From Escherichia coli (GTDB taxonomy: Bacteria; Pseudomonadota; Gammaproteobacteria; Enterobacterales; Enterobacteriaceae), in NCBI RefSeq assembly GCF_036507355.1, contig NZ_AP027877.1: a DNA stretch of 64,000 bases; one strand, 5' to 3'. Below are positions 48,531 through 53,358 of the stretch, piece after piece. Position 1 is the stretch's first letter, and each line of letters begins with the position of its first letter. The notes beneath the pieces were generated by a model, which was not told the DNA's origin, ran no database searches, and was given only the letters and a program-made list of their open reading frames with translations. The position numbers and the translations under genes were made by a program.

Positions 48531-49748
48531 TTACAGCTGATGATAACCAGAAAGGAAACGCGCGAACTTGCTCAAAGACAGCTCGATATCATCGACACGC
48601 GGTAGCGTGACAATGCGGAAGTGATCCGGCCACGGCCAGTTGAATGCCGTCCCTTGCACCAACAGAACTTTTTCCTGCAACAGGAAATCCAGCACCATTT
48701 TCTGATCGTCGTGAATGTTAAAGCGTTTGGCGTCGATTTTCGGGAACATGTACAGCGCACCACGAGGTTTCACGCAGGAAACGCCCGGAATATCGTTGAT
48801 CAATTCCCACGCGCGGTTACGCTGCTCATAAAGACGACCGCCAGGGGTAATAAATTCACTGATGCTCTGATAACCACCCAGCGCGGTCTGAATGGCGTGT
48901 TGCGCAGGAACGTTAGCACACAGGCGCATTGAAGCCAGCATTTCCAGACCTTCGATGTAGCCTTTGGCGTGTTTTTTCGGCCCGTTCAACACCATCCACC
49001 CCTGACGGAAGCCTGCAACGCGGTACGTTTTCGACAGTCCATTAAAGGTAATGGTCAGCAGGTCAGGTGCCAGCGGCGCAATTGAGTGATGCTCAGCGTC
49101 GTCGTAGAGAATTTTGTCATAAATTTCATCGGCGAAGATAATGAGATTATGCTGACGTGCAATCTCCACAATCTCCATTAAAAGCTCTTTGGAATATACC
49201 GCGCCGGTTGGGTTATTTGGGTTGATAATAACGATCCCACGCGTACGAGGCGTAATTTTAGCGCGAATATCATCGAGGTCCGGGAACCAGTCAGAGGATT
49301 CATCGCAAAGATAATGCACCGCTTTACCGCTGGAAAGCGAAACCGCCGCGGTCCATAGTGGGTAATCTGGTGCAGGAACCAACATTTCGTCCCCGCTGTT
49401 CAGCAATGCCTGCATTGCCTGAACGATAAGCTCCGATACACCATTGCCGATGTAAATATCTTCCACGGTAACATCACGCATGCCACGAGCCTGATAGTGC
49501 TGCATGATGGCTTTACGCGCGGAGTAAAGACCTTTGGAATCGCAATACCCTTGAGCGGTAGGCAGGTTGCGTATCACGTCAACAAGGATTTCATCTGGCG
49601 CGTCAAAACCGAACGGGGCTGGGTTGCCGATGTTCAGTTTCAGTACCTTGTTACCTTCTTCTTCCAGGCGTTTTGCTTCTTTCAGCACCGGACCACGGAT
49701 GTCATAACAGACATTCTCTAATTTGCTGGATTTTTCAATGGGGGACAT
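48531..49748 (-). CDS. alaA: glutamate-pyruvate aminotransferase AlaA
   Basis: 405 aa PLP aminotransferase ORF MSPIEKSSKLENVCYDIRGPVLKEAKRLEEEGNKVLKLNIGNP. Confidence 0.94.
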   Translation of the reverse strand: MSPIEKSSKLENVCYDIRGPVLKEAKRLEEEGNKVLKLNIGNPAPFGFDAPDEILVDVIRNLPTAQGYCDSKGLYSARKAIMQHYQARGMRDVTVEDIYIGNGVSELIVQAMQALLNSGDEMLVPAPDYPLWTAAVSLSSGKAVHYLCDESSDWFPDLDDIRAKITPRTRGIVIINPNNPTGAVYSKELLMEIVEIARQHNLIIFADEIYDKILYDDAEHHSIAPLAPDLLTITFNGLSKTYRVAGFRQGWMVLNGPKKHAKGYIEGLEMLASMRLCANVPAQHAIQTALGGYQSISEFITPGGRLYEQRNRAWELINDIPGVSCVKPRGALYMFPKIDAKRFNIHDDQKMVLDFLLQEKVLLVQGTAFNWPWPDHFRIVTLPRVDDIELSLSKFARFLSGYHQL

Positions 49749-50664
49749 GAATCTTGACCTTTTTTGCTGTTATCGCCACTCCCTGCCGTGGAAGTCAGCT
49801 TAGAACAATGTACTCCCCCAGGACGGTGTTTTGAAGGTCTGCAGAATAAGATTTTGCCAGAGGGGAAGGCTCGATTGTGCTGTTAATAACTTAATAATGA
49901 CAAAATAATGAGGTGTATATGCTTTACATGCAATGTTATATAGTGAATTGTTCTGATTCTTAATTGTAAGTCTGGTTTTTTTATCTGTAAGATAATTGTG
50001 TGAAAATGCCTCATTTAAGAATTCACTAATGAAACGCGATGATGATATTTCCGCATTACGGAGAGTTTAACAGCGTGATGATTTCCGAGGTGTCGCAATG
50101 GGGGCAATGTGTGAAACTATTGTTAAGCGGAATTAATGAATGAGGATGATGCTAATTAATTATTATTTAATATTCAAAAAGGTTTTGATGTGCTTATTAA
50201 TAATAGAAGATTACTTTGCCTAACATAACATAACTTTGCATCAGATAATTCGCAATGACCCTTATAAATAAAAGGTTTTTGGGGTAAAATGCTCGCATAA
50301 ATGACGGATCCCTGCTCTTGATGCCGCCTCACCATTGCTGTTTGTACGTGTTCGCGTATGACCAGCGATGCTGCACGAGAGTGGAACAAGGACTCACATT
50401 TACATTTATACAAACACGCGCATGTCATAAATAGAAAAGAGTGAGTAACTTAATAGATATGCGATCCCTGAAGATATATTCTGTGATCTACTTCAGGCAT
50501 TATAACGGAACAATGTGAGTCGCTTTTTTAGTGCAACTCATATGCATTTTTACTTTCGTCCGGGTTCCGGATGAAACTGCCAGGGAGGCACATTACAAAT
50601 GGAATTGCTTGTTTGTGTGTGCACAGCATTAACCAGCTCAGTATGAGCCGCCAGTAAGTGATAA

Positions 50665-51606
<942 letters not shown>

Positions 51607-51650
51607 TCGACGGACGATAGATAATTCCTGAGACAATAGTGTAAAAAACG

Positions 51651-51689
51651 AGCCGCTGGGGGTGTTTTAAACCCCAGCGGCTTTTTTTT
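51651..51689 (+). terminator. rho-independent terminator after lrhA
   Basis: Hairpin agccgctggggg...ccccagcggct followed by a T8 run. Confidence 0.7.
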
Positions 51690-52236
51690 AGTAAAGAACC
51701 TTCTTCACATCGTGCAGAACGTACAAAACTGTTCATTTTTCAATCACCAGAGATTCACGCCCCGTACGCACAAATAATCGCCTGAAAAAAATCACCTGCT
51801 ACAATGATGTTAAAAAATACGTAAATTTGTTGCTGCGTTTTTGTTATGGAATGACAAAAGCGTGTCACAGATCAAGAAAATACTCTCTTTTGGGGGGAGG
51901 AATCGACACAAATTCCTGTCAAAATAGACCCGTATTTTTTCCATTGCTTCACAACGGACACGATTCAACAACATCTAATTATCCTGGAGTCGTCAAGGAT
52001 CTGGGGTGAAAGGGCATTAAATGCTAATGGTGTTGATATTATGTAAACTAATGTGAAGAAACTTTTGTTAAAGTTGACAAAAGGTTATAGAAAGGAGTAA
52101 AAGACCACATCAATTAGCTGTATAAAAGAATTTCTACAGTGATTGTAAGGTTTTTTTTATTCCTCCCCATGAATCGATGTGGCGTCCATCTGCCGTGAAG
52201 AGCAGTGAATCTGGCGCTACTTTTGATGAGTAAGCA

Positions 52237-52680
52237 ATGAGTATGTCAACATCCACTGAAGTCATCGCTCATCACTGGGCATTCGCTATCTTTCTTATCG
52301 TTGCCATTGGCCTGTGTTGCCTGATGCTGGTAGGCGGTTGGTTTTTAGGCGGTCGCGCACGCGCGAGGTCGAAAAACGTGCCGTTTGAATCCGGTATCGA
52401 CTCGGTCGGCTCCGCCCGCTTACGCCTGTCCGCCAAGTTTTATCTGGTGGCCATGTTCTTCGTTATCTTCGACGTTGAAGCGCTGTATCTGTTCGCATGG
52501 TCAACCTCTATCCGCGAAAGCGGCTGGGTAGGCTTTGTGGAAGCTGCAATTTTTATTTTTGTGTTACTGGCAGGTCTGGTTTATCTGGTGCGTATTGGCG
52601 CGCTGGACTGGACGCCCGCGCGTTCACGCCGCGAGCGTATGAACCCGGAAACGAACAGTATCGCTAATCGTCAACGCTAA
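52237..52680 (+). CDS. nuoA: NADH-quinone oxidoreductase subunit A
   Basis: 147 aa membrane ORF, first gene of the nuo operon. Confidence 0.96.
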
Positions 52681-52695
52681 CCGCGAGGCATTAAG

Positions 52696-53358
52696 ATGGA
52701 TTATACGCTCACCCGCATAGATCCCAACGGTGAGAACGACCGTTACCCCCTGCAAAAGCAGGAGATCGTAACCGACCCTCTGGAGCAAGAAGTTAACAAA
52801 AACGTGTTTATGGGCAAGCTCAATGACATGGTTAACTGGGGTCGTAAAAACTCAATTTGGCCGTATAACTTCGGTCTTTCCTGCTGTTACGTTGAGATGG
52901 TGACTTCGTTTACCGCGGTGCATGACGTGGCGCGTTTTGGCGCAGAAGTATTGCGTGCTTCGCCGCGTCAGGCTGACCTGATGGTGGTTGCAGGAACCTG
53001 CTTTACCAAAATGGCACCGGTTATTCAGCGTCTGTATGACCAGATGCTGGAACCAAAATGGGTTATCTCAATGGGTGCCTGTGCCAACTCTGGTGGTATG
53101 TACGATATTTATTCCGTTGTGCAGGGCGTCGATAAATTCATCCCGGTTGATGTGTATATCCCGGGCTGCCCGCCGCGTCCTGAAGCGTACATGCAGGCAC
53201 TGATGCTGTTGCAGGAATCTATCGGCAAAGAACGTCGTCCGCTCTCCTGGGTGGTTGGCGATCAGGGCGTTTATCGCGCCAATATGCAATCAGAGCGCGA
53301 ACGCAAGCGCGGTGAACGCATTGCCGTAACCAACCTGCGTACACCTGACGAGATTTAA
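52696..53358 (+). CDS. nuoB: NADH-quinone oxidoreductase subunit B
   Basis: 220 aa ORF with Fe-S cysteine motifs (CCYVEM, GCPPRP). Confidence 0.96.

Follow-up and report, generated by a model that had tools for sequence, protein, structure and literature searches.

A conserved control region with a structured leader RNA between lrhA and nuoA of Escherichia coli

NADH dehydrogenase I is a major site of electron entry to the respiratory chain, and its 15-kb nuo operon is under the control of oxygen, nitrate, growth phase, iron, and envelope stress. The operon is preceded by an unusually long, AT-rich intergenic gap, and we asked what this DNA does. The gap was analyzed within a 64,000-nucleotide stretch of E. 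coli chromosome (hereafter the window), whose orientation is reversed relative to MG1655. The upstream neighbor of the gap is lrhA (50668-51606, 312 aa); nuoA occupies 52237-52680, with nuoB starting at 52696. The identity of lrhA and nuoA was confirmed in 5421 of 5426 complete genomes and in the K-12 annotation, which also gives nuo as a 13-gene operon.

The full lrhA-nuoA gap measures 630 bp (51607-52236), or 547 bp (51690-52236) when counted after a terminator-like hairpin of lrhA that forms the upstream edge of the shorter interval (51650-51689, + strand; GAGCCGCTGGGG ... CCCCAGCGGC followed by T8). GC content is 38.0% in the shorter interval and 38.9% over the full gap, compared with a window value of 51.9%, and the first-pass annotation of an AT-rich gap of roughly 550 bp ahead of a 13-gene nuo operon thus proved correct. 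The lrhA hairpin was missed by a consensus terminator scan, probably through a loop above the 8-nt limit of that scan, and the "primary" lrhA 3' end by Term-seq falls upstream of it, at 51637. Among 46 intergenic gaps in 49 kb of K-12 annotation, the lrhA-nuoA gap ranks second in length after alaA-lrhA (919 bp) and is the longest between co-directional genes. Its length is identical to that in K-12, with nine base differences, eight of them at 51696-51765, and neither the RefSeq nor the K-12 annotation places any feature inside it.

The data collected below make it very probable that the gap is the control region of the nuoA-N operon, acting in three layers: upstream regulator-binding DNA, promoters, and a leader RNA. 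The seat of nuo control in this gap was already recognized in the 1990s, and as stated the finding is not new; the regulator sites, promoter, and structured leader are real but ordinary components of an already known control region. Beyond the accessible literature lie only the conserved leader structure with its 3' end and a discrepancy in the start site.

Conservation of the lrhA-nuoA gap

A NuoA scan of species-representative genomes yielded 80 Enterobacteriaceae loci, which were aligned with the window (81 sequences in total). An lrhA orthologue lies upstream of nuoA on the same strand in 80 of 80 species representatives, and the gap measures ~619-664 bp in 76 of them, even where LrhA is only 64-70% identical. 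Overall, identity to the window reaches at least 95% in 35% of the columns of 51690-52236. The first 116 bp (51690-51805) form a variable spacer with no detectable constraint, having a mean identity to the window of 0.31 and only 2% of columns at least 95% identical. From 51806 to 52236, near-invariant blocks form a mosaic in which the distances between blocks are also kept. These blocks are 51806-51850, 51849-51887, 51892-51903 together with 51912-51927, 51954-51972, 52012-52030, and 52042-52112; 52159-52239 is also conserved over much of its length. Within 51806-52112, 42-77% of columns are conserved across the 80 species. By the same measure of at least 95% identity to the window, the core promoter (52074-52112) reaches 77% and the nuoA coding start 83%, compared with 6% for the end of lrhA. 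Synteny, gap length, and sequence blocks are all kept across species, and the gap is neither chance nor junk.

Conservation extends beyond the Enterobacteriaceae. Loci from Yersinia, Serratia, Dickeya, and Erwinia carry an lrhA-like LysR gene followed by a 640-720-bp gap. The promoter, including its spacer, is almost identical in Yersinia, Serratia, and Erwinia (TTGACAAAAGGTTATAGAAAGGAGTAAAA) and only partly kept in Dickeya, while hairpin 1, the U tract, the CU box, hairpin 2, and UUUUGAUGAGUAAGCA of the leader described below are present in all four. Leminorella has no lrhA upstream of nuoA, no leader elements, and only a partial promoter match; the element therefore does not extend to every family of the order. 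What our analysis adds here is the conservation of promoter and leader over several Enterobacterales families, down to the promoter spacer.

Such constraint could in principle reflect an unannotated small protein or an independent small RNA gene hidden in the gap. The list of open reading frames does contain gap ORFs of 37-60 aa and, in the leader, two short ones, and two of the blocks (C and D, below) exceed the end of lrhA in conservation. The gap ORFs, however, are intact in only 0-8 of 80 species, with aligned lengths that are mostly not a multiple of three, and those in the leader either lose the start codon or shift in frame or length; none of the six candidates tested was conserved. There is also no Rfam match, no start site between lrhA and nuoA besides that of the main promoter, and no K-12 annotation. 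The hidden-gene explanation is thus largely refuted, and we regard it as very improbable.

The opposite explanation, that the gap is mostly a non-functional AT-rich spacer (for instance a horizontally acquired or H-NS-silenced remnant) with only the last ~60 bp acting as promoter, draws on the low GC content and the unconstrained first 116 bp. Against it stand the conserved gap length and the conserved columns of 51806-52112, together with occupancy by ArcA, FNR, and sigma-70 that reaches 300 bp upstream of the start site; in addition, the lrhA-nuoA spacer appears without an H-NS mark in the RpoD SELEX table. For 51806-52236 this explanation is refuted by the conservation and ChIP data, and for the gap as a whole we give it hardly any credence. 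The last 125-128 bp of the gap are transcribed leader RNA and not promoter DNA.

Promoters, start sites, and upstream regulator sites

To place published data on the window, coordinates were converted as w = 52237 - (c - 2403094) for NC_000913.2 (v2) and w = 52237 - (c - 2405072) for NC_000913.3 (v3). The resulting single coordinate map, which reconciles several public data sets, is a further addition of this work.

The main sigma-70 promoter, P1 (52074-52112, + strand), has a -35 hexamer TTGACA (52074-52079), an 18-bp spacer, and a -10 hexamer TAAAAG (52098-52103), which reads TAAAAA in K-12 and other genera. Genome-wide mapping of 5'-triphosphate ends during exponential growth gave nuoA start sites at v2 2403222 (4218 reads) and 2403219 (1744 reads) (Kim 2012), corresponding to A52109 and A52112. 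P1 thus has the hexamers, the 18-bp spacer, and a start, at 52109, 5 nt downstream of the -10 that are expected of a sigma-70 promoter. RpoD holoenzyme bound this spacer in vitro by SELEX, with TTGACA-18-TAAAAA predicted inside it (Shimada et al.). A simple promoter scan did not find P1 because its -10 lacks the final T, and the sole terminator-like match from the promoter and terminator scan (52316-52338) falls within nuoA and is no better than chance.

In vivo, sigma-70 ChIP peaks were reported at v2 2403231 (aerobic 2886 versus anaerobic 373) and v2 2403389 (aerobic 1576 versus anaerobic 2485) (Myers 2013). These convert to 52100 and 51942, two separate peaks with opposite oxygen preference. 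The second falls in a candidate upstream promoter region, P2 (51942-51975, + strand), which also contains conserved block E (51954-51972) and ends at the database start site, which we place at 51975 below. No convincing -10 or -35 hexamers could be assigned to P2, and the exponential-phase mapping detected no start in the P2 region, nor any other between P1 and the start of lrhA (Kim 2012). The first-pass annotation had suggested multiple promoters: the two sigma-70 peaks of opposite oxygen preference speak for this, and the exponential-phase mapping showed a single promoter, P1, with starts 3 nt apart (52109 and 52112). That nuo has more than one promoter is supported, with the number and positions provisional. 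Under the proposed scheme, the promoter layer would consist of P1, with its perfect -35, 18-bp spacer, and weak -10, driving aerobic starts at 52109 and 52112, and of a second RNA polymerase binding region ~160-170 bp upstream that persists anaerobically.

The start site implied by later papers is a different one. Mutations G86C and C87G, which affect RyhB pairing, were numbered from the nuo +1 (Chareyre 2019). As G52234/C52235 is the sole GC dinucleotide of the ribosome-binding and start-codon region, that +1 would be 52149. Positions in Table S6 of Park 2013, given relative to two start sites 174 bp apart, fit a +1 at 52149 and a second at 51975. From the mutation numbering and this table, we infer 52149 and 51975 to be the database and literature start sites. 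Both disagree with the genome-wide starts at 52109 and 52112, and the aerobic sigma-70 peak at 52100 fits the latter better. Position 52149 adjoins the 3' base of an extended form of leader hairpin 1, just 5' of a run of eight U residues; its position at the base of the hairpin suggests that the classical +1 may be a processed end or a reverse-transcriptase stop. This mismatch of the +1 in common use with the genome-wide starts, which we add here, has a practical side. The fusion of the RyhB study starts at the stated +1, and fusions starting at 52149 lack 37-40 nt at the 5' end of the natural leader and, with them, the whole of hairpin 1, a truncation that becomes consequential if the leader hairpins prove regulatory.

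Upstream of P1, binding sites for global regulators, as anticipated by the first-pass annotation, were borne out by two ArcA ChIP-seq sites, an FNR peak, the listing of IHF, NarL, and Fis, and reports on CpxR. The distal ArcA region, "nuoA2" (51808-51850; v2 2403481-2403523; TGTTAAAAAATACGTAAATTTGTTGCTGCGTTTTTGTTATGGA), contains three direct-repeat elements, and the proximal region, "nuoA1" (52030-52060; v2 2403271-2403301; GTGTTGATATTATGTAAACTAATGTGAAGAA), contains three direct repeats 11 bp apart; both come from ChIP-seq, and nuo was 2.7-fold derepressed without ArcA (Park 2013). The TGTTA/TGTTG repeats of the distal region and their spacing are kept in 80 species. In vivo occupancy, TGTTA-type direct repeats at 11-bp intervals, and arcA-dependent expression, which together define an ArcA-regulated promoter, are all found at nuo.

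Next to the distal ArcA region, block C (51849-51887, consensus AATTAACAAAAGCGTGTCNCAGATCAAGAAAATACTCC) is near-invariant and lies beneath an FNR ChIP-seq peak at v2 2403450, equivalent to 51881 (Myers 2013). For FNR it offers only an ATCAA half-site (51871-51875), and a scan for TTGAT-N4-ATCAA with two mismatches gave no match. A NarL-like heptamer at 51881-51887 reads TACTCTC in E. coli and TACTCCT or TACCCCT in part of the other species, which fits TACYYMT, and NarL is on this pattern a candidate binder. A TGACA-N6-TGTCA palindrome at 51853-51867 was rejected as a conserved feature: it is specific to E. coli, and other species, including E. albertii, have TTAACA. Block D (51892-51927) consists of GGGGGGAGGAAT, eight variable bases, and ATTCCTGTCAAAATAG; its inverted-repeat arms are kept and the spacer is free. 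The Shine-Dalgarno-like GGAGG in this block is followed by no start codon and no conserved ORF. Block F (52012-52030; GGGCATTAAATGCTAATGG) is recognized by its conservation and contains the palindrome GCATT-A-AATGC, a possible site for Fis or another factor. A CpxR-like box, GTAAA-N5-GTGAA (52043-52057), overlaps the proximal ArcA region with one mismatch to consensus and a mean conservation of 0.88, and binding of CpxR to the nuo regulatory region has been reported in the literature.

Sites for NarL, IHF, and Fis would be expected to match TACYYMT heptamer pairs, WATCAANNNNTTR, and the Fis core, respectively. Consensus scans of the gap gave no match for FNR, IHF, Fis, CRP, or PdhR, and the CpxR-like box was the only one of its kind. 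For NarL, scanning found a perfect, conserved heptamer on the minus strand across the -10 of P1 (52093-52099) and two further heptamers near the ribosome-binding site and start codon, one at 52226-52232 and a well conserved one at 52237-52243. IHF, ArcA, NarL, and Fis are tabulated as known nuoA regulators, alongside two promoters (Myers 2013). The protein assignments for blocks C to F are thus putative, and of the regulators concerned ArcA and FNR occupancy alone can be placed from data.

Collectively, the ~270 bp of upstream DNA (51806-52073) would form the first layer of control. It holds the global-regulator sites, with ArcA at two places and FNR at one, in addition to IHF, NarL, Fis, and CpxR as reported in the literature, and these factors would make transcription responsive to oxygen, nitrate, growth phase, and envelope stress. 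Deletion analysis by Tran and colleagues in 1997 is said to have located sites for control by fumarate, nitrate, and oxygen near -309, near -277, and downstream of -231. Counted from a +1 at 52149, these fall on the conserved blocks described above, at ~51840, at ~51872, and beyond 51918.

The leader RNA and its possible roles

Transcripts from P1 carry a leader of 125-128 nt that folds into two hairpins. Hairpin 1 (52111-52145, + strand) sits at the extreme 5' end of the mRNA, beginning 0-2 nt from the mapped start sites, and is followed by UAAGG and the U8 run (52151-52158). Its sequence drifts among genera, and in each genus tested, Yersinia and Serratia among them, the hairpin folds with an energy of -8 to -19 kcal/mol. 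Changes on both sides occur in 9 of its 11 pairs, and 73% of cells in the alignment are paired, compared with 25-43% in slid controls. Downstream, an invariant pyrimidine box, AUUCCUCCCC, and the adjoining AUGAAUCGAU (52159-52178, + strand) are predicted to be single-stranded between the hairpins.

Hairpin 2, or T2 (52179-52220 with a tail to 52227, + strand), has a lower stem GUGGCGUC/GGCGCUAC (52179-52186 with 52213-52220), an invariant upper stem CUGCC/GCAG with an invariant AAGAG loop, and a following UUUUGAU; it ends 17 nt before the start codon. In the consensus fold, 98-100% of cells are paired, and compensatory exchanges are seen at three pairs, with AU replacing GC in 15 sequences, UA replacing CG in 14, and CG replacing UA in 20. 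Its folding energy is -15.3 kcal/mol in the window and ranges from -10 to -17.5 kcal/mol across 74 distinct leaders, in all of which three to six of the eight nucleotides after the hairpin are U.

RNA 3' ends map to this tail. In the supplementary tables of Adams et al. 2021, a dominant 3' end is given at v3 2405086 (52223) for LB at OD 0.4 and at v3 2405082 (52227) for at least one other condition, both positions being 10-14 nt before the nuoA ATG. Their Term-seq scores (282,730 and 475,924) are well above most neighboring entries among those listed, with a Rho score of 0.82 ("No") and an intrinsic-terminator score of 11.56, where values above 3 are predictive. The main text of that paper does not mention nuo, and no discussion of the leader structure or the 3' end was found in the literature accessible to search.

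Directly 3' of these RNA ends begins the translation initiation region (52228-52247, + strand; GAGUAAGCAAUGAGUAUGUC), in which AAGCAATG is near-invariant; ATG 52237 is the annotated start codon and ATG 52243 is more widely conserved. RyhB pairs here over 21 nt covering the ribosome-binding site and start codon, with G86C/C87G abolishing the interaction and compensatory RyhB mutations restoring it (Chareyre 2019), so that nuo has published compensatory-mutation validation as a RyhB/Hfq-regulated mRNA. We predict a duplex of RyhB nt 37-58 with 52228-52247, which contains the mutated G52234/C52235; the prediction was confined to the RyhB core, as a full-length prediction over-extended. A separate 10-nt complementarity between GGGGAGGAAT (51894-51903) and ATTCCTCCCC (52159-52168) was rejected as a potential long-range RNA pairing: its upstream copy is not part of any mapped or database transcript, and we estimate that a 10-mer inverted repeat in 630 bp would arise by chance about one time in five. 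The third layer of control would thus consist of the 5'-terminal hairpin, the U/C-rich single-stranded stretch, the second hairpin with its U residues, and the RyhB pairing site across the ribosome-binding site and start codon. The positions of these features and their conservation are observed; what the two hairpins do can be proposed from them. The leader could be an attenuator, a stabilizer, or a decay remnant.

The reading toward which we lean, while holding it short of probable, is one of stability and processing without any switch. The 5'-terminal hairpin would shield nuo mRNA from 5'-end-dependent decay and hairpin 2 would block 3' exonucleases, and the abundant 3' end would be a decay or cleavage remnant bounded by the two hairpins, possibly generated by an RNase E cut in the AU-rich stretch beside the RyhB/Hfq site. 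Hairpin 1 begins 0-2 nt from the mapped starts; the derived end at 52149 falls at the 3' base of extended hairpin 1, before U8; the 3' ends lie directly 5' of the RyhB duplex; and both hairpins are kept as structures despite the sequence drift of hairpin 1. Most 3' ends in 5' UTRs have also been ascribed to processing (Adams et al. 2021). The stability reading has to contend with the high intrinsic-terminator score and with a position, 52149, deduced from the numbering of mutations and one table. In iron-replete rich medium, RyhB levels are expected to be low, yet the 3' end is abundant there.

Alternatively, hairpin 2 and its U tract could act as an intrinsic terminator at which some transcripts end 10-14 nt short of nuoA, leaving operon expression dependent on regulated read-through, and the terminated leader of ~115 nt may act as a small RNA. 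Hairpin 2 does have the properties of an intrinsic terminator, namely a stable G+C-rich hairpin, a U tract, and 3' ends within that tract. The ends at 52223 and 52227 are strong and not Rho-dependent, the compensatory changes preserve the stem while all 74 distinct leaders retain the U-rich stretch, and the element persists in Yersinia, Serratia, Dickeya, and Erwinia. The remaining signs of attenuation are missing. We found neither a competing antiterminator fold nor a conserved upstream ORF in the nuoA leader, which folds as a whole no better than shuffles (z = -0.72); as these features of regulated attenuation were tested for and are absent, the leader is not classed as an attenuator. Attenuation by a leader peptide, as in trp, his, or pyrBI, likewise does not apply: the ORFs at ATG 52169 and ATG 52177 are unconserved in start, frame, and length and are preceded by CCUCCCC, not by a Shine-Dalgarno sequence. 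In addition, UUUU makes a short U tract, which is degenerate in Kluyvera, Pluralibacter, and Trabulsiella (reading CUAUUU, UAAUUU, and CACUUU, respectively); hairpin 2, with its length of 42 nt and its interruptions, does not resemble a typical terminator; the nuo operon is well expressed; and the 3' ends appear in supplementary tables only, without discussion by the authors (Adams et al. 2021). We therefore consider attenuation possible but rather unlikely.

A third, partly compatible reading sees the leader as a platform for Hfq and RyhB. More speculatively, the nuoA leader could be an unrecognized cis-regulatory RNA conserved across several Enterobacterales families, built from the 5' hairpin, a platform rich in U and C, and a hairpin resembling a terminator beside the RyhB site, in which hairpin 2 would serve as a conditional terminator or as the source of an abundant ~115-nt leader RNA. 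We offer this as a tentative proposal that is more apt to fail than to hold; if true, it would add an extra, post-initiation layer to nuo control. In a related reading, the full hairpin 1 with U8, including bases upstream of the P1 start, would terminate only transcripts reading through from P2 or lrhA, and P1 transcripts, which begin within the 5' arm of hairpin 1, would escape.

Comparison with known systems

The DNA analyzed here and the previously described regulatory region of E. coli nuoA-N (Bongaerts et al. 1995; Wackwitz et al. 1999; RegulonDB/EcoCyc) are the same locus, for which ArcA, FNR, NarL, IHF, and Fis and two promoters are listed (Myers 2013). It differs from that description in the genome-wide starts at 52109 and 52112, where later papers imply a +1 at 52149, and from the K-12 sequence in the -10 (TAAAAG in the window, TAAAAA in K-12).

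Like cydAB, sdhCDAB, and cyoABCDE, multi-factor respiratory operons controlled by ArcA and FNR, nuo has a long upstream region in which several direct-repeat sites for ArcA overlap with FNR and nucleoid proteins, and transcription is served by more than one promoter. Unlike in these operons, both nuo ArcA sites lie upstream of the -35 (at -79 to -49 and at about -300 from 52109) and not over the core promoter, and the core promoter spacer of nuo is near-invariant across the order.

The leader, for its part, carries a putative terminator that resembles the intrinsic terminators and derived RNAs that Term-seq places in 5' UTRs, such as that of ispU, in having a dominant 3' end that is not Rho-dependent, a high intrinsic-terminator score, and a hairpin with U residues (Adams et al. 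2021). It differs from them in that its 3' end is only 10-14 nt from the start codon, beside a small RNA pairing site, and in that no ligand, leader peptide, or antiterminator is apparent. Within the same operon, the nuoG RNA motif (Rfam RF01748; 57094-57136 in the window) is likewise a conserved RNA structure and is the sole Rfam match of the whole window; a search of 49500-52700 gave microRNA noise only (E of at least 0.25). Located upstream of nuoG, that motif is distinct from the nuoA leader, which differs from it in sequence and position and matches no Rfam model.

Promoter P1 and the leader hairpin

P1, the main sigma-70 promoter of nuoA (TTGACA 52074–52079, TAAAAG 52098–52103), differs from its K-12 counterpart in the last base of the −10. 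At 52103 the window carries G, shared with E. albertii, versus A in K-12 and all other genera, and neither allele is the usual T of a −10. Most E. coli probably carry G: of 5355 E. coli genomes matched by a 43-mer that covers the promoter, 4279 show 99% identity or more to the window over its length. The 18-bp spacer between the hexamers, AAAGGTTATAGAAAGGAG (within 52074–52103), showed conservation equal to that of the hexamers themselves, Yersinia, Serratia, and Erwinia included (loci L084, L085, and L087), which suggests that it is read by something beyond RNA polymerase. By sequence match, a perfect NarL heptamer, TACTCCT, overlaps this spacer on the minus strand (52093–52099).

Sequence 5′ to the P1 start, ACC for E. 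coli and GCCCACA for the Yersinia and Serratia loci L084 and L085, can pair with the GG(U) that precedes the U run downstream of hairpin 1, the 5′ leader hairpin at 52111–52145. Such pairing, within 52104–52158, would lengthen hairpin 1 into a terminator-like shape bordered on one side by an A tract (the −10 itself) and on the other by a U tract; for Yersinia and Serratia the predicted energy of this longer form is −18 to −19 kcal/mol. Only a transcript arriving from upstream can adopt it. Term-seq (Adams et al. 2021) lists no 3′ end in this stretch (52104–52158).

Transcript ends and starts around lrhA

Upstream of the nuo control region, the "primary" Term-seq 3′ end of lrhA falls at 51637, 31 nt past the stop codon and upstream of a strong terminator-like hairpin at 51650–51689; the Term-seq rows around the lrhA-nuoA locus list no 3′ end at that hairpin. 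Eight of the nine differences from K-12 in the 630-bp lrhA-nuoA gap are clustered within 70 bp of unconstrained spacer (51696–51765, ~11% divergence), and this cluster may represent a different allele or a recombination patch.

On the other side of lrhA, the gap separating it from the divergent alaA measures 919 bp (49749–50667) and is very AT-rich, with 30–34% GC across 49800–50300. An lrhA start site has been placed at 50297, giving a 371-nt 5′ UTR (Kim 2012), within which Term-seq 3′ ends occur at 50376 and at 50618, the latter 50 nt before the ATG. Also within this gap are a sigma-70 peak seen anaerobically (about 50210) and an entry in the FNR table (about 50186; Myers et al. 2013).

The nuoA start codon and features within the operon

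Conservation of ATG 52237 (MSMSTS...), at which nuoA is annotated to start, is incomplete: this codon is absent from Serratia, Dickeya, and Erwinia and replaced by TTG at three Kluyvera/Pluralibacter loci. A second ATG at 52243 (MSTSTEV...) was, in contrast, found in all loci compared, and for this reason it is a candidate for the genuine or ancestral initiation codon.

Start-site and promoter calls have also been reported inside the operon: a minor start site of 40 reads within nuoA at 52255 (NC_000913.2 position 2403076), assigned to nuoB (Kim 2012), and internal RpoD-binding "promoters" marked between nuoB and nuoC and between nuoG and nuoH (Shimada 2014). Directly upstream of nuoG, the plus strand carries the nuoG RNA motif (Rfam RF01748; 57094–57136), which scored 50.3 bits (gathering score, 33) and was the sole Rfam family to reach its gathering score across the whole window.
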